IMG/VR virus record: IMGVR_UViG_3300049988_000286
Span: 352,001 to 416,000 of that record
Strand: one strand, 5' to 3'
Source: a virus
Taxonomy: Duplodnaviria > Caudoviricetes
DNA: 64,000 nucleotides
The first letter of the stretch is position 1; each line of letters starts with the position of its first letter. A program made the translations under genes and the position numbers. The notes under the pieces were generated by a model, which saw nothing but the letters and a program-made list of their open reading frames with translations, was not told the origin of the DNA and ran no database searches. Positions 15,552 through 52,909 of the stretch are shown in pieces.

Positions 15552-15955
15552 GCGACCAAAGCTCCCACGAGCGCCCACGTGTCAGTCGCGACCTTGACCA
15601 GCGTTGCCGCCGCATATTGCCCCTTCATCTTGACGTAAGCGGTATCGCTTTGAAGCGTCACGCCCGCAGCGGCGACGAAACTGGTTTGCCCCGCCCCAAC
15701 CTGCTGCACATCGATGCGTGTGCCGATCGCCAGCGCAACAGAGGCATTGGTGGGAACGGTGTAGGTGTTGGGAGTGGCGACATCCATGCGCACGAAGGCT
15801 TCCGCATCCCCGGCCGCGATTGTGGTCGATGCCGTGTAGGTGTTGACGACGGTCTTGCGCGGCAGCAGGGTGAGGACATTCGACAGAAGGGCATTGAGGG
15901 TATCGCGAACATCTTTGCCGGTCGAACCGTTGAGAATGCTGGTCAGGATGGTCAT
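15548..15955 (-). CDS. virion/tail-associated structural protein
   Basis: TVPTNASVALAIGTRI...QYAAATLVKVATDTWALVG; TAAATA 4 nt upstream. Confidence 0.75.
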   Translation of the reverse strand: MTILTSILNGSTGKDVRDTLNALLSNVLTLLPRKTVVNTYTASTTIAAGDAEAFVRMDVATPNTYTVPTNASVALAIGTRIDVQQVGAGQTSFVAAAGVTLQSDTAYVKMKGQYAAATLVKVATDTWALVGALVA

Positions 15956-25520: not shown

Positions 25521-26051
25521 ATGAAGAAGATCAAGACTGTGTTCGCCATTGATCGTGCCACGCATCGCGCTACCGACGAGGTGATCGCGCAGTGGGTCAT
25601 GGATGGCGAGGGGGTGGCGACTATCAAGGTCGATGGCACATCCTGCGCAATCCGGGGTGGAAAGCTGTTTCGTCGCTACGATGCGAAGAACGGCAAGACG
25701 CCGCCGGAGGGCTGGGAGCCCTGTGAAGCCGCTCCCGATCCCCATACCGGCCATTGGCCGGGATGGCTGCCTGTCGAGGGTGACCCGGCGGGCAAGTACC
25801 ACCGGGAGGCGTTTGACGCCCTACTCCCCGATGGCACTTACGAGCTTGTCGGCCCCAAGGTTCAAGGAAACCGATACGGGCTCGACCGTCACGAACTTCG
25901 CCCGCATGGCGCGCAGATCGTAGAGGTTGCGAGGACTCGTGAGGCTCTCCTTGATTGGCTCACGAGCCATGAAGAGGAGGGACTGGTCTTTCACCGCGCA
26001 AATGGTGACATGGCCAAGCTTCGGCGCAAGGACTTCGGTCTGCGCTGGTGA
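25521..26051 (+). CDS. DUF5565 / RNA-ligase-like nucleotidyltransferase
   Basis: TIKVDGT (KxDG), GTYELVGPKVQGN, EGLVF and AKLRRKDF motifs. Confidence 0.75.
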   Translation: MKKIKTVFAIDRATHRATDEVIAQWVMDGEGVATIKVDGTSCAIRGGKLFRRYDAKNGKTPPEGWEPCEAAPDPHTGHWPGWLPVEGDPAGKYHREAFDALLPDGTYELVGPKVQGNRYGLDRHELRPHGAQIVEVARTREALLDWLTSHEEEGLVFHRANGDMAKLRRKDFGLRW

Positions 26052-26055
26052 CAGA

Positions 26056-26080
26056 GGAGAGGGGCGACCCTCTCCTTTTT
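26056..26080 (+). terminator. rho-independent terminator
   Basis: GGAGAGGG-GCGA-CCCTCTCC followed by TTTTT. Confidence 0.8.
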
Positions 26081-26894: not shown

Positions 26895-27191
26895 ATGCTC
26901 ACTCTTCCTCTCCTCTTTTATTGGTGGACCATCGCCCTCATTGGCGCGGGCCTCGGTATCTGGAACGCAATCCGCATCCCGAAGCGCCGCTGGGCTTGGT
27001 TGCTGTTCGGCTATCTCATCGTTGGCCTGTTCTCGCTCGCTTTGCCGATGAAAGCCGCACTACCTGCGACTAGCCTTGTCGGTGTCGTATTCCTGACACT
27101 CATCTGGCCATTCTGGTTCCTGCAATCACTCGGCTATAGCATTCCCGAACTATTGCCGCTATGGTTTCAGGCAATGCTCTTCAACGTATAA
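26895..27191 (+). CDS. membrane protein
   Basis: Three hydrophobic segments. Confidence 0.7.
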   Translation: MLTLPLLFYWWTIALIGAGLGIWNAIRIPKRRWAWLLFGYLIVGLFSLALPMKAALPATSLVGVVFLTLIWPFWFLQSLGYSIPELLPLWFQAMLFNV

Positions 27192-27710: not shown

Positions 27711-27964
27711 TGTCGGTCCTAGTTCACGTTAACCGATCCCACATAGCGATGAACGCCAAGGATGGCGGCAATCGACCCGTCTATACTGTGAAGATGAAGG
27801 GGCGCACGCGTTACGCGCGTGAGGTGATCATCCATGGTCCTTCTCGGATGGTCTACGATGGCACGCAATTGAGTTGCGGGGCACGGGCTTGGTTGATCAG
27901 TGATGCAGAGGTCACGCTCGTGGATGAAATGTCTTTCCAAGAGGCCAGACTTGCCGTAGAGTAG
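27710..27964 (+). CDS. conserved phage hypothetical protein
   Basis: VHVNRSHI...GPSRMVY...LSCGARAW. Confidence 0.75.
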   Translation: MSVLVHVNRSHIAMNAKDGGNRPVYTVKMKGRTRYAREVIIHGPSRMVYDGTQLSCGARAWLISDAEVTLVDEMSFQEARLAVE

Positions 27965-27981: not shown

Positions 27982-30717
27982 ATGGTTGATTATCGCCCCA
28001 CCGTGACTGTTCCGAAGACGCCGCTGCCCACGAAGGCGCGGATCGCCGATGAGCCTCGTCAGGTCGAGGCGTGGGCGGGTCTCCATGATCGCCTCGCTGC
28101 GAAGAACGAGGGTCGCCCAACTTACCTCCTCCACGACGGCCCCCCGTACGCGAACGGCAACATCCACATGGGGCACGCGCTCAACAAGGTGCTCAAGGAC
28201 GTGATCTGCCGGGGGCAGCGCGCTCTCGGCTTCGATGCTCGTCTGCACGCGGGGTGGGACTGTCGTGGTCTTCCAATCGAGTGGAAGGTCGAAGAGGATT
28301 GGCGCAAGCAGAAGCGTGACAAGAATGCCGAGCCGGAAGCATTTCGGCAGGATTGCCGCGACTATGCGGCACGGTGGGTGGATGTCCAGAAGGAGCAGTT
28401 CAAGCGGCTGGGGATCGTCGCCGACTGGGAGTCCGCGCCCTACGGTCATGGTTACCGCACGATGTCGCCCGAGATGTCGAGCCTGATCGTTTACCGCTTT
28501 CACCGCATGGTGGAGCGCGGCGATGTGTATTCGGCCAAGAAGCCGGTGTTGTGGAGTCATGTCGAGCGCACCGCTATGGCGGAGGCGGAGACCGTGGATC
28601 GCGAGCATCAGGTCGAACAGGCGTGGGTGACCTTCCGGATGTTCGCAGGGCCGCTCAAGGGCGACGATCTCCTTGTCTGGACCACCACGCCTTGGAGCCT
28701 TCCGAGCAATGTCGCGGTCGCGTACAACCCTGACATCGCCTACGGGCTTTACGAACAGCGCGGACGCCGGTTCGTGGTTGCCGACAGTTGTGTGGAACGC
28801 GCGCTGCAAAATGATTATCAGCGCCTCCGCGACATCGATCCGAAGACGGACTTCCCGCGCCATGCAGAGCATCCCCTGAACGATCTCGGCTACCCGGTTG
28901 GTGAGGACTGCGTGTCGCGGATCATGCCGGCATCCTTCGTCCGCGACAGTGCGGGAACGGGTCTTGTCCATGTCGCCCCCAGTCATTCCCGTGATGACTG
29001 GGAGGCTTGGAAGGCGCTCGATCACACGTTGACCTTCCCGACGACGATCAACGAGGATGGGCGCTACCACGACAGCCTTCCGCTGTTCGGCGGCACGGCG
29101 GTGGTCAAGGGCAAACGCCTCGGTCCCGCGAACGAGATGGTGCTCGATGCCATGGCGGAGCGTGGTACGCTCTACCGGCGCGAGACTGCTCCCCTGACCT
29201 TGCAGCACTCTTGGCGCAGCGACGCGGTTCTCCTCACGCTCGCCACTGATCAGTGGTTCATCCGCGTCACCGGGGAGGGCGGCGTGGTTGAACGTGTGCT
29301 TGCGGGATTGGCGGAGGTTGAGTTCTCCCCATCCAGCGGCGGCACGCGCATGGCCTCGATGCTGCGCGATCGTCCCGATTGGCTGGTGTCTCGTCAGCGC
29401 CTGTGGGGCACCCCCATGGCCATCTTGGCGCATCGTCGCACCGGCGAGCCCTGCCGTGATCCGGCCGTCTTGGGAGCGATCCATCAAGAGTTGATGGATC
29501 GTGGGGCGGATGCGTGGTGGAGCGAGTTCTCGGTTGAGGACATGTTCGCAGCGATCGGTCGCCCCGACGAGGCCAAGGACTGGCGGCGCGTCGATGACGT
29601 GCTCGATGTCTGGTTCGATTCTGCGTGTGTGCACGCCATCACTGGTGAGCGTGCCGATCTTGTCGTCGAGGGGAGTGATCAGAGCCGTGGCTGGTTCCAG
29701 AGCAGCGCTCTCGAAGGCATGGCCAACGATGGCGTGCTCCCGTACCGGGAAGTGCTCACCCACGGTTTCGTCCTTGACGGATCGGGGCGCAAGATGTCGA
29801 AGTCGGAGGGGAACGTCATTGATCCCATGACGGTGGTAGATCGTCTTGGCGCGGATGCGGTTCGTGTCTGGGTAGCTGCCACCGACGTTCGCGAAGACCT
29901 TCGTGTCAGTGATGCGGTGTTAGCCACCCATGCCGAGACGGTTCGCAAGGTCCGTATCACGCTTCGCTACCTCGTCGCGGCGCTGGCGGGTGTTACCGTT
30001 ACGCACGATCGGGTGATCGTCGATCCCCTCAACCGCTATGTGCTCAATCGTGTCGCGCATACCAGTGACGCGTTGTTCGCCATGCTGGCGGAGAAGGACT
30101 TCACCCGCTACGTGGCGACGATCGCGAATTTCTGCGCCAATGATCTCTCCGCCCTGCTGTTCGATGCCCGCAAGGACATCCTCTACTGCGACGGGCCGAG
30201 TGCGCGACGGGATGATTATCTCGCAACGCTCTCGGAGGTGTTTGAGCATCTGGTTCGCTGGGCGGCTCCCGTGATGGTTTTCGCGGCGGAGGAGATGTGG
30301 CAAGCCCTCCATCCAGAATCGAGCGTGCACGAGCAAGACTGGCTCCATCCCCACTGGTTGTGGAACGACGAGCGGTTGATGGAACGGTGGGCGAAGGTGC
30401 TCGATTATCGCTCGGAGATGTTGGGCAAGATTGAGGAAGTGCGTGCGGCGGGTGCGGTGAAGTCTAGCCTTGAATGCCATCTCACTGTCTTCGCCGATCC
30501 AGCGGCACGCCAGCACATGCTTGGGATCGATATGGCGGAACTCACCCTCACGGCTGGGGTGGATATCCGCTCCTTGGAGGGGCGCTTTACCGCACCGACC
30601 AACACTGTGGTGGAGCGTGTCACCACGCCGCGCTGTGACCGGTGCTGGCGGCACGTCGAGGTCGAGGCTGTCGAGGACTCGCATCTCTGTGATCGGTGCG
30701 CGGAGGTTGTGGCGTGA
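27982..30717 (+). CDS. ileS: isoleucyl-tRNA synthetase, type 1
   Basis: PYANGNIHMGH, WTTTPW and GTGLVH editing motifs, SRQR, KMSKS, C-terminal CDRC..CDRC zinc finger. Confidence 0.95.
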   Translation: MVDYRPTVTVPKTPLPTKARIADEPRQVEAWAGLHDRLAAKNEGRPTYLLHDGPPYANGNIHMGHALNKVLKDVICRGQRALGFDARLHAGWDCRGLPIEWKVEEDWRKQKRDKNAEPEAFRQDCRDYAARWVDVQKEQFKRLGIVADWESAPYGHGYRTMSPEMSSLIVYRFHRMVERGDVYSAKKPVLWSHVERTAMAEAETVDREHQVEQAWVTFRMFAGPLKGDDLLVWTTTPWSLPSNVAVAYNPDIAYGLYEQRGRRFVVADSCVERALQNDYQRLRDIDPKTDFPRHAEHPLNDLGYPVGEDCVSRIMPASFVRDSAGTGLVHVAPSHSRDDWEAWKALDHTLTFPTTINEDGRYHDSLPLFGGTAVVKGKRLGPANEMVLDAMAERGTLYRRETAPLTLQHSWRSDAVLLTLATDQWFIRVTGEGGVVERVLAGLAEVEFSPSSGGTRMASMLRDRPDWLVSRQRLWGTPMAILAHRRTGEPCRDPAVLGAIHQELMDRGADAWWSEFSVEDMFAAIGRPDEAKDWRRVDDVLDVWFDSACVHAITGERADLVVEGSDQSRGWFQSSALEGMANDGVLPYREVLTHGFVLDGSGRKMSKSEGNVIDPMTVVDRLGADAVRVWVAATDVREDLRVSDAVLATHAETVRKVRITLRYLVAALAGVTVTHDRVIVDPLNRYVLNRVAHTSDALFAMLAEKDFTRYVATIANFCANDLSALLFDARKDILYCDGPSARRDDYLATLSEVFEHLVRWAAPVMVFAAEEMWQALHPESSVHEQDWLHPHWLWNDERLMERWAKVLDYRSEMLGKIEEVRAAGAVKSSLECHLTVFADPAARQHMLGIDMAELTLTAGVDIRSLEGRFTAPTNTVVERVTTPRCDRCWRHVEVEAVEDSHLCDRCAEVVA

Positions 30718-46996: not shown

Positions 46997-47178
46997 ACGG
47001 CATGGCGTCAAAGCCGTCCCCACCACCGCCCTCCTTTGTCATGCGATTGTTCTGTGAATACGCGAAAAATCTCCATTGATGTGCTGTCCCGCTCGCACAA
47101 TCATGCAGATGGGAACTGCATTACGCCGCCCCCATTCGAGCACATCTATGAGCGAACAATCGACTTCGATGATCCGGT

Positions 47179-47430
47179 TCATCGCACCACCTCCACTGAT
47201 CCCACATACAGGGTAAGTAGGTCGAAGTCACGATCGCGGACGATGATCCGGTAGGAACGTGATATCCGCGAGAACTTACTATAGCGAGCGAGGATGCGCC
47301 GCGACCCAATCGTCTTCAATTCCGGATTATAATTTAGACGCGGCACATAGAGCAATGCCGGAACGCCAGCGCTGCGGCACCATTCCATCAGGGTGACGAG
47401 GGGAGCGTGGACCTTGATGAGACGGTTCAT
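47179..47430 (-). CDS. paralog family B protein
   Basis: EWCRSAGVPA and IIVRDRDFDLLTLYVG motifs. Confidence 0.7.
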   Translation of the reverse strand: MNRLIKVHAPLVTLMEWCRSAGVPALLYVPRLNYNPELKTIGSRRILARYSKFSRISRSYRIIVRDRDFDLLTLYVGSVEVVR

Positions 47431-47666
47431 CCATCCATCCCGTTCAACCGTAGAGCGACCTCCTCCGGGGTTCCCAACACGTTGTAGTCCTCCCCCACCT
47501 CCATGACGATCTGGGTAACGCCCGCATCGTATTCCAAGATGGATACGACATGCCGGGGATTGACCCAAACGTTGCCCACGCCCTGCCACGCACCCCACTG
47601 CGCACCGGCCTGCGGCAGTGTAGTGGGGAGACGCTGACGAGCGGCTCGTATGAACGGTATGAACAT
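47427..47666 (-). CDS. small FlbD-like protein
   Basis: WVNPRHVVSI...TQIVM..GEDYNV..TPEEV. Confidence 0.55.
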   Translation of the reverse strand: MFIPFIRAARQRLPTTLPQAGAQWGAWQGVGNVWVNPRHVVSILEYDAGVTQIVMEVGEDYNVLGTPEEVALRLNGMDG

Positions 47667-47735
47667 CCCCCGTGTATGCGCGCGCGGAGACGGGGGTGCA
47701 ATAAAGGCTTCCGGGGATCGATAGTTTGGGGAGGG

Positions 47736-47811
47736 TGGTGCCCACTGACCGACTTGCACGGTCCATCTCCGGGTTACAAATCCGGCACAGCGCTATCTCT
47801 GTTTAGCGGGC
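47736..47811 (-). tRNA. tRNA-Thr(UGU), atypical elbow
   Basis: GCCCGCT/AGTGGGC acceptor, TTTGTAA loop, T-loop TGCAAGT, D-loop lacks GG, CCA. Confidence 0.8.
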
Positions 47812-47819
47812 AGAAGCAA

Positions 47820-47907
47820 TGGCGGGCGAGGTGGGATTCGAACCCACGGAACCTTGCGGTTCGTCACGTTAGCAGTGTGGTGGTTTCGGCCTCTCACCCA
47901 CTCGCCC
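47820..47907 (-). tRNA. tRNA-Ser(GCU)
   Basis: CTGCTAA loop, long variable arm, TTCGAAT T-loop, CCA; weak anticodon stem. Confidence 0.85.
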
Positions 47908-47922
47908 GTATTCTATAGCTGA

Positions 47923-48010
47923 TGGTGGAATCGGTGGGATTCGAACCCACGGAACCTTGCGGTTCACTCGCTTTCCAAGCGAGCCCGATCGGCCACTCTG
48001 GCACGATTCC
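47923..48010 (-). tRNA. tRNA-Ser(GGA)
   Basis: CTCGC-TTGGAAA-GCGAG anticodon arm, long variable arm, CCA. Confidence 0.95.
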
Positions 48011-48023
48011 ATATCAGAAACTC

Positions 48024-48113
48024 TGGAGGAGCCGACCCGATTCGAACGGGTGAGACCTTGCGGTCTGCTCGTTTTCAAGACGAGTGCGTTAAACCGGGCT
48101 CCGCCACGGCTCC
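48024..48113 (-). tRNA. tRNA-Ser(UGA)
   Basis: CTCGT-CTTGAAA-ACGAG anticodon arm, long variable arm, CCA. Confidence 0.95.
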
Positions 48114-48114
48114 T

Positions 48115-48483
48115 TTATGTCAGACCAAGTTCCTGCATGTCAACCGAAGGAACGGTCCAATTCTTTATCCTTTTACCCCAGATGGCCTTCATCCTCGGTA
48201 AAGTGAGGGGCTCGATCCGAAGAGCGCCGCAATCAGCACCCAAGTAGTCCGCAAGAAACTCATCTCGCGACTGGCGTAATCCTCGTGCATCACCGAAAAC
48301 ATCCTCGCCGAACATGACACCAACATGTCGCGGAACAGTGTCCCAAACATCGTCGAAGATTCCTACTAGGGTTCCGCCATGAAGATCGTGCAGCGTCGCC
48401 GCCATCACCATGCATTCACCGCGTTGATAACGCTCTAGCGCCGACCTGTCATCATCGAAAGCGTCGATCTCAAAAATTCGCAT
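48115..48483 (-). CDS. late gene with papain/transglutaminase-like triad; paralog of 23927-24361
   Basis: MRIFEI start; GECMVMA, PRHVGV and FGDARG motifs. Confidence 0.7.
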   Translation of the reverse strand: MRIFEIDAFDDDRSALERYQRGECMVMAATLHDLHGGTLVGIFDDVWDTVPRHVGVMFGEDVFGDARGLRQSRDEFLADYLGADCGALRIEPLTLPRMKAIWGKRIKNWTVPSVDMQELGLT

Positions 48484-48487
48484 CTGG

Positions 48488-48493
48488 TATTTA
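48488..48493 (-). promoter_or_regulatory. late promoter TAAATA
   Basis: 4 nt to ATG 48483. Confidence 0.75.
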
Positions 48494-48582
48494 GTGGTGC
48501 CCTCGGAAGGAATCAAACCTTACGTTTCCGACGTACCAAGTCGGCGTTCTATCATTGAACTACGAGGGCGTAGTTGTTAAAC

Positions 48583-48741
48583 CTATAAATCGATTGAAGG
48601 GTCGATCGTCCCCGCACGGGCGAGCAGATCATCTACCCACCGTCGCTCCTCAATCTCACGCTTGATCTCTTCGATCGCTACGCGTGCGGTCTCGGCATCC
48701 ATGTCGCCGACATCGATGTAATGGATTGTGCGCTCGGTCAC
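48583..48741 (-). CDS. 52-aa protein (not in the supplied ORF track)
   Basis: GTG start overlaps the upstream stop; MTERTIHYIDVGDMDAETA... Confidence 0.55.
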   Translation of the reverse strand: MTERTIHYIDVGDMDAETARVAIEEIKREIEERRWVDDLLARAGTIDPSIDL

Positions 48742-48941
48742 GGGTTCTTCTTCAACTGGCGCTGCAACTGTTCGCCGATGCCGCGAATGGTATCCGCGCC
48801 GGAATAGAGGATCGTCGTCTGCTCACCATTGCTGTGCAGCCAAGTCACCAGTGTAGAGTCCTCGGTGACGAAGTTGGCGTTCTCGATGTAGGCGTCTTCC
48901 AGCGCCTCGAAGACGGTCTTGGTAGGGGCGATATTTGTCAT
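48738..48941 (-). CDS. hypothetical protein
   Basis: AAGGGGG SD. Confidence 0.65.
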   Translation of the reverse strand: MTNIAPTKTVFEALEDAYIENANFVTEDSTLVTWLHSNGEQTTILYSGADTIRGIGEQLQRQLKKNP

Positions 48942-48978
48942 CCCCCCTTATACCTCGACGGGTCGCCGCGCGGCAATA

Positions 48979-49281
48979 TTAAGCCGTGGTGCGACCAGCG
49001 AACATCGTTGAGCAGAGGACGAAACCGGTCTCGTCATCCAGCATAACGGCGATGCGATCATGCTCAACCACAACGACCGAGTGGAAGATCGCATTCTCGT
49101 GGCACCACCGCTCCATCTCTACGGAGAGGGGCGTGGCACCATCGCCAGTAAGGCCGATCATCAGGCGCTCCGCGTTGAACGTGATCTCGACCGACAGAGG
49201 AGTGTAGAAAGCCCTTGCCGACAACATCTTGTTGATCACCGCATCGACGCTTTGATTCCAGAGATGCGCTTTCGATTTCAT
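48979..49281 (-). CDS. paralog family A-like protein
   Basis: RWCHEN and VMLDDETGFVLCSTMF motifs; TTGACA promoter. Confidence 0.65.
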   Translation of the reverse strand: MKSKAHLWNQSVDAVINKMLSARAFYTPLSVEITFNAERLMIGLTGDGATPLSVEMERWCHENAIFHSVVVVEHDRIAVMLDDETGFVLCSTMFAGRTTA

Positions 49282-49305
49282 CCCCGGTTGGTAATCATGC
49301 GCGAA

Positions 49306-49803
49306 CTATTTGTCAAGGTTTTTCCGGCGGTGCCAATGCTCCTCCATGTGGCAAGTTGGACAAAGGAATTCGAGGTTTGCCATTTCATCAGAACCACCCT
49401 TCGATCGCTCTACAATGTGGTGAACCTGAACAATCTCCGGAATCTTCTCATAGGAACAACGTTCGCATCGTTCCGCACCTTTGAACTCAATCAGCCTAGA
49501 CCTTATTGAGGCGTGTTTTACAACGGCGCTCTTCAGGGGTTTACCTGTCTGTTTATAGTTTATACCGGCACGATGTTTGTTTGAACAGCGTTTGGAGCAG
49601 GTGACACGACTAGCCGCCCCCATGAAGGTCTCTTGGCACACAGGGCAGAGTTTTGGCTTTGAACAGTGTTGTCCAAAGCACGCTCGACTACAGAATACAC
49701 CCACTTTGTCGGTGCCCATACGAGATGGTCGGCGATAAATCGCTTTGCTGCAAACAGAACATTCCGTGTTTGGTGGCGATATGTAACCGGGCTTACTAGG
49801 CAT
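49306..49803 (-). CDS. HNH homing endonuclease
   Basis: CERC...VHHI...GG...NL..LCPTCH plus N-terminal CxxC/CSxxC repeats. Confidence 0.85.
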   Translation of the reverse strand: MPSKPGYISPPNTECSVCSKAIYRRPSRMGTDKVGVFCSRACFGQHCSKPKLCPVCQETFMGAASRVTCSKRCSNKHRAGINYKQTGKPLKSAVVKHASIRSRLIEFKGAERCERCSYEKIPEIVQVHHIVERSKGGSDEMANLEFLCPTCHMEEHWHRRKNLDK

Positions 49804-49851
49804 ACTCTGCAAGGTATGCTAATTTCGCCCGGCAGAGCGATATTAAAATGA

Positions 49852-49941
49852 TGGCGGAGGGCCGAGGACATGCTCCCCACACGATTGCCCGTGCGTTCGG
49901 TTTTCGAGGCCGACCCAGCGCGCTTGTCTGGTTGACCCTCC
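49852..49941 (-). tRNA. tRNA-Ser(CGA), atypical elbow
   Basis: GGAGGGT/GCCCTCC acceptor, CTCGAAA loop, long variable arm, T-loop AGCATGT, CCA. Confidence 0.75.
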
Positions 49942-49954
49942 GTAACTGTAATCT

Positions 49955-50305
49955 CTATGCCATATTCGGCAAGTTAGGCGCAATCGGGCACCGCGATATC
50001 CTTACCAGAAAGTATCGCGCAGCCACCAAAGCTTTGAGCCGAACCTTGATCGGGACATCCGTCTTCTTGGCGACGCGGAGGCATCGAGCCACGAAATGAA
50101 TATCGGCGATATGTTGGCGACGACGCTTGTCCGCTGCATCGCCGCGATAACTCTTGTCATACTCGCAGTCATGCTTGAAGCACGCTTTGTCGAGTTCATC
50201 GATGGGAGCGCCGCCGCAATTACCCGGCCCGCAATAGTTGCCATGGAAGCGGATGAAGCGCTTCGTTGGTGCTAATGGGGCTTCGAACAGATGGCGGCTG
50301 CGCAT
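49955..50305 (-). CDS. phospholipase A2-like late protein with internal-protein-like N-terminus
   Basis: MRSRHLFEA start; YCGPGN Ca-loop, DKACFKHDCEY (HD) and ADIHF motifs. Confidence 0.8.
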   Translation of the reverse strand: MRSRHLFEAPLAPTKRFIRFHGNYCGPGNCGGAPIDELDKACFKHDCEYDKSYRGDAADKRRRQHIADIHFVARCLRVAKKTDVPIKVRLKALVAARYFLVRISRCPIAPNLPNMA

Positions 50306-50309
50306 CTGT

Positions 50310-50315
50310 TATTTA
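50310..50315 (-). promoter_or_regulatory. late promoter TAAATA
   Basis: 4 nt to ATG 50305. Confidence 0.75.
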
Positions 50316-50413
50316 CACTGGCTTGACGGAGTTTGCACCGCAAGGTGTTGGCGTACCGTGGCACCCAGATCGTCGTGAAGAGACCTCCTCTTACCGGAGC
50401 CGACGATCAACCA

Positions 50414-50590
50414 TTACATTTCGTATAGGACTACCGTCCAATCTCGATCATCGAAGTGGTAGCGGCGGTAGTGGACTTGTCCGAAGAGTCCATCGATCCC
50501 GTCGATGTAATCACCGCTATTGGGAACGGTGGGCATGTCGCGCTCACCAAGTATGCGATTGTCGGCATCGCGGAAGATGACGCGGTTCAA
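50414..50590 (-). CDS. 58-aa protein coupled to rpsU (not in the supplied ORF track)
   Basis: TTG start overlaps the rpsU TGA; MNRVIFRDADNRILG... Confidence 0.55.
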   Translation of the reverse strand: MNRVIFRDADNRILGERDMPTVPNSGDYIDGIDGLFGQVHYRRYHFDDRDWTVVLYEM

Positions 50591-50787
50591 CGATCGCGTT
50601 CCGCTCGCTGACGATCGGCTTTCCTCGATCGCTTGACCGCAGCGGCGCGAGCCTTGGCCTTAACTTCGCTGGGCTTCATGTAGTGGGCGCGCTGTTTCAT
50701 TTCACGCAGGATGCCCTCGCGCTGCATCTTGCGCTTCAAGACCTTCAAGGCCTTGTCCATATTCCCGTCCTGAACCGCTACCCGCAT
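50587..50787 (-). CDS. rpsU: ribosomal protein bS21
   Basis: DKALKVLKRKMQREGILREMKQRAHYMKPSE matches alphaproteobacterial bS21; AAGGA SD. Confidence 0.9.
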   Translation of the reverse strand: MRVAVQDGNMDKALKVLKRKMQREGILREMKQRAHYMKPSEVKAKARAAAVKRSRKADRQRAERDR

Positions 50788-50844
50788 TGTGTGATCCTTT
50801 CGGAGACGGGCTAGCTGGGAGTTCGGACGAGGGCAAGAGGGAAG

Positions 50845-50920
50845 TGGAGCCCGAGGTCGGGATTGAACCGACGACCTGTCCCTTACGAGGGGACTGCAAC
50901 TACCACTGTGCTACTCGGGC
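50845..50920 (-). tRNA. tRNA-Thr(CGU)
   Basis: GTCCC-CTCGTAA-GGGAC anticodon arm, TTCAAT T-loop, CCA. Confidence 0.9.
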
Positions 50921-50969
50921 GTGTGAAGGGTTGACAGGGGCTATGCCCCTAGAAGAAAAAATCGGTGAC

Positions 50970-51045
50970 TGGCAGGAGCGCCGAGACTCGAACTCGGAAC
51001 CTACGGGATTGGAAGCCGGTGCTCTACCAATTGAGCTACACTCCT
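50970..51045 (-). tRNA. tRNA-Trp(CCA)
   Basis: A1-U72 and G73 identity elements, TTCCAAT loop; anticodon stem has only 3 pairs. Confidence 0.75.
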
Positions 51046-51052
51046 ACAGTCA

Positions 51053-51126
51053 TGGTTGGCACGGGTGGTAATGCTCCACCGTCTCGGCTTTATCAGAACC
51101 TTGCTCTACTTTTGAGCTACGCGCCA
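51053..51126 (-). tRNA. tRNA-Ile(GAU), atypical elbow
   Basis: CTGATAA loop, T-loop AGCATTA, D-loop AAAAGTA, CCA. Confidence 0.8.
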
Positions 51127-51156
51127 TCAGTGACAGACAACCGGTCTGTCAGCGGG

Positions 51157-51232
51157 TGGTGGTGACGGCTGGGCTCGAACCAGCGACATACGCGTCATCA
51201 ACACGTCGTTCTTCCAACTGAACTACGCCACC
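51157..51232 (-). tRNA. tRNA-Ile(GAU) with G37
   Basis: ACGTG-TTGATGA-CGCGT anticodon arm, canonical D and T arms, CCA. Confidence 0.85.
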
Positions 51233-51237
51233 ACATT

Positions 51238-51525
51238 GAGCGTCGCCCGAGACTCATCGACGATGTGCGCACCGCTCCCGTGGGATGTGCGATCTCGTCG
51301 GGTCGTACGTCGGGCGACGACTCCAAACTATCAATCCGGGGAAGCTGCTTCCAAGCGCGTGCTTCATGTCAAAGAGCCCCTGTGGAGGGCGCTTCGGCAG
51401 ATGTTGCTTGGAGAAGGGGACTTCAGGTGTCCCGAACCTCAACCAATACCCGCCTAGAACGGGTATGGCAAACCACCCCGCTCACCCGAAGGTGATCGAC
51501 CAACTAATCGTGGTTGAGGAGGTTG
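51238..51525 (-). ncRNA. candidate multi-domain structured RNA at the head of the tRNA operon
   Basis: Three nested inverted-repeat domains and a cUUCGg tetraloop on the minus strand; no credible ORF. Confidence 0.55.
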
Positions 51526-51540
51526 TCGTGTTCATGCTTT

Positions 51541-51572
51541 TATTTATACCGAAGGGGTCGCCGGGCTGTCAA
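51541..51572 (-). promoter_or_regulatory. overlapping sigma70 (TTGACA...TATAAA) and T4-type late (TATAAATA) promoter
   Basis: TTGACA at 51572-51567; TATAAATA at 51548-51541. Confidence 0.75.
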
Positions 51573-51576
51573 CACC

Positions 51577-51582
51577 TAAATA
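51577..51582 (+). promoter_or_regulatory. late promoter TAAATA
   Basis: 4 nt to ATG 51587. Confidence 0.75.
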
Positions 51583-51586
51583 CAGC

Positions 51587-52909
51587 ATGGCTAGAAAAAT
51601 CACCGACCTTCCGCAGTCTACCCTTTCGGCGACCGATCTCGGTGCTGCCTCCATCCCCGTTTCCAATGTGGGCAGCAACGCCTCGGTGCTGGAACGCGTG
51701 TTGGCGCGCGACTTCATGTCGTTGCTCGGTGGGAGCTATCGCGGCACGTGGAGCGCGTCGCCTTCGCGGCCGTATAACTTCGGCGACATCGTGACTGTCC
51801 TCTCAATCATCACTCCAATCTACTATGTCTGCCTTATCGCGGGCACTACCTCCAATCCCTCTGCGAACACGGGCTGGCAACTGATCAATTCCGTGGTGCG
51901 TGGTACCGATGCTGGACCACCTACAGTCGGGGTAGATGGCCAATTGATCATTCAGGATGGCTTGCTGTATTTCAATAGCAACGGCGCGCGTATTCCGCTG
52001 CTTCGTGGCGACGCCCCGCTATTGTCGAACCAGATCGCGCGTGAGCCGGGGACGATCAACATTCTGGATGATCCAACCTTCGCCAGTGGAAGCACATGGA
52101 CGGTGGTGGGTTTCAATCGGGTGGCGTCAACTAATGACTTCGGTAACGGTTTTGCCTATCAGACTAGCGGCACGGGCAGTTTCAGCCTCAAGTCGAAAAT
52201 GACCATCCCTTACACAAGCGGAGAGCAACAGTACGTACGTTATTTTATAACGAAGACCGCTGATTTCGCGGGTACGATCTCGCTCACGTACATAAAGGCT
52301 AATAAAGACGGCAGCAATGCATCAGCGCAGACGGCTGCCACGATCAACCCGACAACGCTTAATACTTTTAGCTTCGGGCTAGATACTAACTTTTCCAACT
52401 TTGGAAGTGGTAACATTACTGCTTTCGGTGTAGAGGCGACGGTTACGGCAGGATCGATCACCGTATTGAGGCTAGAATATTACAAACCTCTAAATCTCCG
52501 GTATCTACCTACGACGACATCCACGTCGGTGTTCTACTACGGTAACAGCACTTTGCTTACGCCACCGGACACGCTGATCAACGCCAGTAAACCCACTGAT
52601 ATGGGTAGTCTTTCTGGCAACATCACGCTCAACTTCTATGCCTATCGAAGTGCAAATTTCACGCTCACTGGCAACAGCACATTGGTCAATCCATCTGGCG
52701 TCGCGTTCTCCGGTTTCGGTGGACGCATCCGCATTACTCAAGACCCTGCTAACTCTGGCGCGCCTTACACTCTAGCCTATGGGTCGGCGTGGAAGTTTCC
52801 CGGCGGCGCGCCGACGCTCTCTACGACACCGGGGGCGGTTGATCTCTTGGTCTATTTCGTCAACACCGACCTGACCTTTGAGTGCACGCTCGTCAAGGAT
52901 GTGAAGTAA
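51587..52909 (+). CDS. tail fibre / receptor-binding-type structural protein
   Basis: ARKITDLP N-terminus; C-terminal FTLTGNSTLVNP...ITQD...WKFPGG.PTLSTTPGAVDLL module. Confidence 0.75.
   Translation: MARKITDLPQSTLSATDLGAASIPVSNVGSNASVLERVLARDFMSLLGGSYRGTWSASPSRPYNFGDIVTVLSIITPIYYVCLIAGTTSNPSANTGWQLINSVVRGTDAGPPTVGVDGQLIIQDGLLYFNSNGARIPLLRGDAPLLSNQIAREPGTINILDDPTFASGSTWTVVGFNRVASTNDFGNGFAYQTSGTGSFSLKSKMTIPYTSGEQQYVRYFITKTADFAGTISLTYIKANKDGSNASAQTAATINPTTLNTFSFGLDTNFSNFGSGNITAFGVEATVTAGSITVLRLEYYKPLNLRYLPTTTSTSVFYYGNSTLLTPPDTLINASKPTDMGSLSGNITLNFYAYRSANFTLTGNSTLVNPSGVAFSGFGGRIRITQDPANSGAPYTLAYGSAWKFPGGAPTLSTTPGAVDLLVYFVNTDLTFECTLVKDVK

Follow-up and report, generated by a model that had tools for sequence, protein, structure and literature searches.

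Can the corner of a tRNA be held together by bases other than G18 and U55? This question is raised by a tRNA operon in the phage DNA studied here, a stretch of 64,000 nucleotides which represents bases 352001–416000 of a 499,572-bp IMG/VR virus record rated complete (IMGVR_UViG_3300049988_000286; Duplodnaviria, Caudoviricetes) and which is called the window in the following. In tRNAs with the canonical elbow, residue 18 inserts itself between residues 57 and 58 and forms a single hydrogen bond to pseudouridine 55 (psi55), and the G19-C56 pair offers a flat outer face for stacking by RNase P, the L1 stalk and T-boxes (PMC4810234). Reviews regard G18 and psi55 as universal features of tRNA (PMC4810234, PMC7609411). 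The operon holds three genes, all read from the minus strand, which have A18 and G55 instead (coordinates are those of the window unless the genome is named):

47736–47811, minus strand: tRNA-Thr(UGU) with A18/G55 (cloverleaf fold, structural scans)
49852–49941, minus strand: tRNA-Ser(CGA) with A18/G55 and A54-U58 (cloverleaf fold, structural scan)
51053–51126, minus strand: tRNA-Ile(GAU) with A18/G55 and A54-U58 (Rfam, cloverleaf fold, family alignment)

These genes are real and conserved, and their variant of the tRNA elbow is apparently undescribed. Judged by their sequences, they are likely to work as elongator tRNAs with an alternative corner, reading ACA (Thr), UCG (Ser) and AUC/AUU (Ile).

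An earlier note on this DNA had read the T-loops as TGCAAGT in Thr-UGU, AGCATGT in Ser-CGA and AGCATTA in Ile-GAU, with AG in all three D-loops where GG is expected. Reading the minus strand at the gene ends given above confirms both observations. Thr-UGU has AA at positions 8–9, the D stem ACAG/CUGU with the D-loop AGAUAGCG, G21, the anticodon loop UUUGUAA, the T arm GACCG-UGCAAGU-CGGUC and A as discriminator, followed by an encoded CCA. In Ser-CGA a 3-nt spacer CAA precedes the D arm CCAG-ACAAGCGCG-CUGG; the anticodon loop CUCGAAA, a long variable arm, the T arm UGGGG-AGCAUGU-CCUCG, discriminator G and CCA complete the molecule. Ile-GAU consists of the D arm GCUC-AAAAGUA-GAGC, the anticodon loop CUGAUAA, a 4-nt variable loop AGAC, the T arm GGUGG-AGCAUUA-CCACC, discriminator A and CCA. 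For each of the three the minimum-free-energy fold is the cloverleaf, and with the canonical elongator tRNA (RF00005) they share its 7/4/5/5-bp stems, a 7-nt anticodon loop with U33 and purine 37, the 7-nt T-loop, the G19-C56 pair, the location in a tRNA operon and the discriminator plus CCA that also end the operon's other tRNAs. They differ from it (G18-psi55, T54-A58) by A18 and G55 in all three and by A54-U58 in Ser-CGA and Ile-GAU, whereas Thr-UGU retains U54.

Among DNA samples, the best source of the phage is a leaf metagenome; phyllosphere runs contain related strains. Thr-UGU recurs unchanged in a contig of run X2. In the Ile-GAU gene of a related strain (contig of run X3) just A57->G and A16->G differ from the window gene, and the former change gives the T-loop AGCGUUA, the majority form of the family described below. 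The interval 49757–50119, which includes Ser-CGA, lies outside the coverage of the X2 and X3 contigs, a gap that is uninformative.

Standard gene finders see little of these tRNAs. ARAGORN at default settings reports nine tRNAs in the window, but the three G55 genes are not among them. The Rfam tRNA model adds a single gene to these, Ile-GAU at 51056–51126 with 45.5 bits (the gathering threshold of RF00005 is 29 bits), and gives no match to Thr-UGU or Ser-CGA even at E<=1. A covariance model of our own (R1, built from 24 G55 tRNAs) likewise left these two undetected and found no additional G55 tRNA in the genome. A cloverleaf scan which asks for stems, U33, R37 and CCA only yields 30 matches in the phage genome, the three window genes among them, and one in its reversed sequence.

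Genome-wide, 47 tRNA genes were tabulated. All six tRNAs with G55-C56 have A18-G19, and none of the approximately 40 tRNAs with U55 has A18 (Fisher, 1e-7). Taken together with the 30 matches versus one in the reversed sequence, this association excludes a chance origin of the cloverleaves. The count of three remodelled tRNAs in the earlier note thus holds for the window but not for the genome, where three further genes raise it to six:

Genome 25982–26057: tRNA-Val(GAC), A18/G55, T-loop GGCAGAA (structural scan)
Genome 29033–29108: tRNA-Ala(GGC), A18/G55, T-loop GGCAGAA (structural scan)
Genome 443301–443384: tRNA-Tyr(GUA), A18/G55, T-loop with UGCAA

The clearest case of a paired change at 18 and 55 is that of the paralogues Ala-UGC and Ala-GGC. 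Their D arms are identical save for G18->A18, they have the same variable loop and both keep G3-U70, and their T-loops read UUCGAAC and GGCAGAA, respectively. Apart from Ile-GAU, the G55 tRNAs occupy gaps among the anticodons and do not duplicate canonical genes.

The same association is found far beyond this phage. In a first sample, viral contigs were seeded on a D arm with AG (1.03 Mb fetched) and searched with a structural cloverleaf finder that left the D- and T-loop sequences unconstrained; it gave 274 matches and none in the reversed control. With the seed tRNAs excluded, 199 tRNAs combine GG with U55-C56 and 17 combine AG with G55-C56, while the crossed combinations do not occur (Fisher p = 1e-25). 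A second sample was selected reciprocally, from the T-loop side, by an Ile anticodon loop, RGCRUUA and CCA. It comprises 79 unique good viral cloverleaves, of which 78 have A18-G19 and none has GG. Among the neighbouring tRNAs in this sample the combinations are GG/UC 606, AG/GC 36, AG/UC 1 and GG/GC 0 (Fisher p = 3e-58). More than 20 different anticodons occur with A18/G55 in the viral samples, and intermediates that combine A18 with U55 are seldom met (4 of about 900 structural matches).

The pair 54-58 is freer. In the first sample it is U-A in 28, A-U in 5, G-G in 11 and another combination in 9 of the 53 tRNAs with G55; in the 211 tRNAs with U55 the corresponding numbers are 205, 4, 0 and 2. 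Within the Ser family (n = 33) U-A occurs 15 times, A-U 10 times, G-G 7 times and another pair once, and some nearly identical genes differ merely by UGCAAGU versus AGCAUGU (for instance, locus L495 versus the window gene). One U55 tRNA of the phage itself, tRNA-Asn(GUU) at genome 27717–27803 on the plus strand, has the T-loop AUCGUAC, that is A54-U58 with U55 and GG kept; thus the 54-58 swap is possible without the 18-55 swap. The proposals of the earlier note that A18-G55 replaces G18-U55, and that A54-U58 replaces U54-A58 in Ser-CGA and Ile-GAU, are therefore borne out: the former by near-perfect covariation, seen in the phage genome as well as in two independent viral contig samples, the latter by the alternation of U-A, A-U and G-G within families.

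A further class of compensated elbow change was seen at the neighbouring pair. In two tRNAs of this phage A19 and U56 replace G19-C56, and tRNAs with G18-A19 and U55-U56 occur 15 times in the viral samples:

48495–48569, minus strand: tRNA-Thr(GGU), A19 (D-loop AAUGAUA) and U56 (T-loop UUUGAUU) (Rfam, structural scan)
Genome 27082–27158, plus strand: tRNA-Arg(ACG), A19 (D-loop AACUGAAUA) and U56 (T-loop UUUGACU)

Each of the three window genes has its own relatives. For Ile, an alignment of 71 sequences including the window gene has 98.1% of its stem cells paired, with changes on both sides in 19 of 21 pairs, and its covariation score is 0.873, whereas shuffles reach 0.21 and slid controls do not exceed 0.14. 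Its invariant loop bases are A14, A15, A18, G19, the anticodon loop, G53, G55, C56, U58, U59 and A60, in addition to A73. In 74 of 95 viral loci this Ile tRNA is the sole G55 tRNA seen. The Ser family was seeded in viral contigs on the D arm alone (CCRG-ACAAGCGYG-CYGG). This gave 33 unique cloverleaves, 32 of them with G55; every one has a Ser anticodon, a long variable arm and G73-CCA, and the stems covary. In this family (loci L479–L555 plus the window gene at 49852–49941) the first T-stem pair (49-65) is U-U, U-C or U-G in most members and 27-43 is mostly A-A, and in the 3-nt spacer before the D stem the first nucleotide is free and the remaining two are AA. For Thr, a seed on UGU and UGCAA gave 10 good cloverleaves, nine of them with AG. 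The homologue in a 207-kb phage contig (L436) has A8, a D-loop of the G21 type (AGACAGCG) and the T-loop UGCAAGU of the window gene; every stem differs from that of the window gene, yet is compensated. The tRNA array of this contig is almost wholly of the G55 type and includes a Ser tRNA with the D arm of the window's Ser-CGA. Most matches to the Thr pattern, and about 87 of 120 pattern matches in genome contigs, are chance matches that have no cloverleaf.

In all three families the stems are 96–99% paired with compensatory changes around invariant loops. The covariation across phage homologues that the earlier note had named as a check is thus found at 18/55 and 54/58, with compensated stems, and its view that the changes are compensatory rather than degenerate agrees with the extensive stem variation around fixed loops. 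Its picture of a remodelling of three unrelated tRNAs does not hold, as each is a member of a pre-existing and widely distributed A18/G55 family. The families also keep bases that are known in E. coli as synthetase identity elements. In Ile these are A73, U12-A23 and, for the most part, C4-G69; Ser keeps G73, G2-C71 and the long arm, Thr keeps G1-C72 and C2-G71, and Ala keeps G3-U70.

The Ile family extends to bacterial assemblies, mostly Verrucomicrobiota. At the bacterial loci the neighbouring tRNAs are largely of the A18/G55 type (112 versus 17 canonical), and in Verrucomicrobiota the G55 Ile-GAU (L253–L354) stands among clusters of such tRNAs, with up to 11 in 8 kb (L274). A Ser-type homologue, unannotated, is present in a cultured phage, Microcystis phage Mwe-JY26 (PP438418.1, 98917–99006; L557:3001–3090). 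With the same D arm (AAA-CCGG-ACAAGCGCG-CCGG) and the T-loop AUCAAGA, which has U55, it represents one of the rare A18/U55 intermediates. The tRNA-Ile of Synechococcus phage S-PM2, a BLAST match to an Ile tRNA of the family, was rejected; it has the canonical GG and UUCGA, and its anticodon arm alone had matched. In a BLAST comparison with cultured phages, the canonical Ser tRNAs were the only part of the region that matched, and searches for close relatives of the phage anchored on proteins (a 440-aa neighbour and the S21 protein) led to distant or unrelated loci only.

How might such an elbow be built? A precedent exists outside tRNA. The T-loop of FMN (flavin mononucleotide) and cobalamin riboswitches follows YGNRA, mostly UGNAA; the intercalator between its positions 4 and 5, which lies opposite the G at position 2, is an adenosine in 99.96% of cases, position 3 pairs with the receptor in Watson-Crick fashion, and alternative T-loop groupings comprise the tRNA-type UUCRA and the rRNA-type GGAAG (bioRxiv 10.1101/2022.12.26.521914). 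UGCAA of Thr-UGU fits YGNRA exactly, and the GGCAG of Val-GAC and Ala-GGC parallels the rRNA form GGAAG. The AGCAU of Ser-CGA and Ile-GAU agrees at G2, N3 and R4, whereas its 1-5 pair is reversed and falls outside YGNRA. The riboswitch contacts are intramolecular and belong to RNAs other than tRNA; in the tRNAs described here the partners A18 and G19-C56 are present and covary, as known from their sequences.

Since the A18/G55 tRNAs match the generic T-loop module base for base (UGCAA or GGCAG, with A18 and G19-C56), we infer the same fold. A18 would take the place of G18 between residues 57 and 58 and would face G55, and the closing pair 54-58 could be U-A, A-U or G-G. With G19-C56 preserved, the outer face of the elbow would remain as it is: the same fold with a different lock. 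The design did not arise in this phage; each of the three is a member of a tRNA family that is widespread in phages and partly bacterial. As for the enzymes acting here, psi55 cannot form in any of the three tRNAs, and m5U54 (5-methyluridine) cannot form in Ser-CGA and Ile-GAU. The suggestion in the earlier note that targets of TrmA and TruB are removed therefore stands for TruB throughout and for TrmA in two genes, but not for Thr-UGU, which keeps U54. Its other suggestion, that the tRNAs evade elbow-reading host factors, is unlikely for RNase P, the L1 stalk and T-boxes because the G19-C56 outer face is kept.

Other tRNAs that depart from G18, G19 and T-psi-C are known, such as those of metazoan mitochondria and the pyrrolysine tRNA (tRNA-Pyl) (PMC7609411). 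These lose contacts or shrink their loops, whereas here loops of normal size carry strictly covarying bases, from which we conclude that the contact was rebuilt and not lost. The staphylococcal non-proteinogenic tRNA-Gly, which is without the canonical D- and T-loop bases (PMC4574755), is likewise a natural bacterial tRNA without G18 and U55. It has also lost G19 (U19) and C56, carries glycine only and serves cell-wall synthesis; in contrast, the tRNAs reported here have the anticodons UGU, CGA and GAU, keep G19-C56 and belong to a design spread over many amino-acid families. With defence-escaping phage tRNAs they share that phage-encoded tRNAs deviate at positions read by host nucleases. The known published cases of such escape concern the anticodon loop, not the elbow; the one by Azam et al. 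(2024), as cited in PMC13462974, reportedly is of this kind. Full-text literature searches for natural A18/G55 tRNAs returned engineered U55G mutants only and no natural case.

The operon itself provides hints on the role of these tRNAs. It starts with a short open reading frame (ORF) and contains, besides the genes listed above, the following features:

51482–51535, minus strand: leader mini-ORF MNTTTSSTTISWSITFG, 17 codons, at the head of the operon
51157–51232, minus strand: tRNA-Ile(GAU), canonical elbow (GG, UUCGAGC), G37, anticodon loop UUGAUGA (ARAGORN, Rfam, tRNA table)
50970–51045, minus strand: tRNA with CCA anticodon (Trp), canonical elbow, weak anticodon stem (ARAGORN, Rfam)
50845–50920, minus strand: tRNA-Thr(CGU), canonical elbow (ARAGORN, Rfam, tRNA table)
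50587–50787, minus strand: ribosomal protein bS21, inside the tRNA operon (Pfam match)
49955–50305, minus strand: phospholipase-A2-like ORF, directly upstream of Ser-CGA (Pfam match)
49306–49812, minus strand: HNH endonuclease, directly downstream of Ser-CGA (Pfam match)
47820–48113, minus strand: Ser tRNAs UGA, GGA and GCU, all with canonical elbow, directly upstream of Thr-UGU (ARAGORN, Rfam)

The Thr, Ser, Ile and Trp codons of the leader (ACG, ACA, ACC, UCC, UCA, AUU, AGU, UGG, UCG and AUC) correspond one-to-one with the anticodons of the operon tRNAs. For two of them, ACA and UCG, the matching anticodons are carried here by the G55 tRNAs Thr-UGU and Ser-CGA. With the G55 genes counted, the phage has three Thr isoacceptors (GGU, CGU, UGU) and four for Ser (UGA, GGA, CGA, GCU). 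The codon match in the leader and the completed Thr and Ser sets are circumstantial evidence in favour of a decoding role.

The leader is preceded by a promoter-like TTGACA...TATAAA; a scan for promoters and terminators over 47000–52000 gave a site count not above that of shuffled sequence. In a metatranscriptome (run X5) contigs cover the operon ORFs at 48972–49150 and 49547–49719 and none cover the tRNAs, but this library may contain DNA and is uninformative on expression. The canonical Ile-GAU lies directly upstream of the G55 Ile-GAU and, having G37, is without the A37 needed for N6-threonylcarbamoyladenosine (t6A); the two adjacent genes thus differ from the norm at separate loops, by G37 in one and by G55 in the other. 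The anticodon stem of the Trp-type tRNA has two mismatches, and ARAGORN reads it with an 8-nt loop and the 4-base anticodon UCCA. Across the genome, six tRNAs have A8 instead of U8, and an extra hairpin in the variable region occurs in several tRNAs that normally belong to class I (Arg, Asn, Gln, Glu, Met and Cys). The phage also encodes several other components connected with tRNA:

Genome 15556–15913: transfer-messenger RNA (tmRNA)
Genome 102238–102314 and 106351–106425: two tRNAs with the amber-reading anticodon CUA
Genome 98857–99225: CCA-adding-type nucleotidyltransferase
Genome 26983–27073, 27717–27803, 68172–68259, 453376–453545, 25686–25776 and 52274–52364: examples of tRNAs with an extra variable-region hairpin

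The view that the three genes are working elongator tRNAs has to be weighed against several observations which do not favour it. Thr-UGU and Ser-CGA lie under the detection level of ARAGORN, Rfam and R1 alike. Both have further oddities: A8, G21 and an A31-C39 mismatch in Thr-UGU, and the 3-nt spacer before the D stem, a C31-A39 mismatch and a weak 49-65 pair in Ser-CGA. The geometry proposed for the elbow is borrowed by analogy from riboswitch modules and not from a tRNA structure. Finally, only 6 of about 47 tRNAs of the phage have the design, thus it is not required for function in the host. The low or absent detector scores of Thr-UGU and Ser-CGA could be taken to indicate decaying pseudogenes or chance cloverleaves. 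This is hardly credible, as compensatory stem changes go with loops that are invariant over many contigs, 18 and 55 covary strictly and the reversed-sequence controls gave 0 or 1 match; that the homologues are assembly copies of one sequence is excluded by their divergent stems. Nor does it seem probable that these are tRNA-like RNAs without a role in translation, such as decoys for tRNA-binding defence proteins or donors of amino acids to non-ribosomal reactions. The staphylococcal tRNA-Gly gives a precedent for the loss of canonical D- and T-loop bases (PMC4574755), and two of the three window genes escape the standard detectors. However, that tRNA has U19 whereas G19-C56 is kept here, the design is found with more than 20 different anticodons, the anticodon loops are standard (U33, R37), identity-type bases are conserved in Ile, Ser, Thr and Ala, and the G55 genes complete the Thr and Ser anticodon sets, with their codons used in the leader. 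We therefore prefer the reading as elongator tRNAs, which would presumably be charged by the host synthetases and used on the ribosome.

Why the design is maintained is a separate matter. G55 might be kept as an escape from enzymes that read U54 and U55, for example Schlafen-type Cash nucleases, and might make the tRNAs independent of TruB and TrmA. This idea is a refinement of the reading as elongator tRNAs and is compatible with it, and we regard it as tentative. CbCash, an anti-phage Schlafen nuclease, cleaves tRNAs 5' of U55 at a UUC motif; replacing U54 or U55 alone is enough to block it, and its authors left open whether phage tRNAs are targets (PMC13462974). G55 eliminates this motif in all three tRNAs, the adjacent Ile-GAU genes are each altered at a different nuclease-prone loop (G37 and G55, respectively), and some phage contigs, such as L436, have arrays almost wholly composed of G55 tRNAs. 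On the other hand, with merely 6 of about 47 tRNAs of this type the phage would remain exposed, the G55 tRNAs except Ile-GAU fill anticodon gaps and are not duplicates of canonical ones, and the G55 Ile tRNA is the lone G55 tRNA in most of the viral loci. Among the proteins encoded by the phage there was no match to TruB or to Schlafen (SLFN_AlbA_2). It is conceivable, though on balance doubtful, that A18/G55 constitutes a second, interchangeable tRNA design which phages keep and trade because it resists T-loop nucleases and does not depend on TruB and TrmA. If so, the G55 tRNAs of this phage would be nuclease-proof spares, and its G37 and G55 Ile-GAU genes would represent two solutions for escape side by side.

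For tRNA biology in general, these genes suggest that a tRNA elbow can be made to work in a second way, namely that of riboswitches. Genes with A18/G55 are easily missed by annotation: ARAGORN overlooks all three of those described here and Rfam two of them, and the homologue in Mwe-JY26 is unannotated. The Thr and Ser anticodon sets of the phage are complete only when these hidden genes are counted. They may serve as natural substrates for studying how the T-loop is read by RNase P, the CCA-adding enzyme, EF-Tu, the ribosome, TruB and TrmA as well as defence nucleases, and possibly as scaffolds for orthogonal tRNAs.

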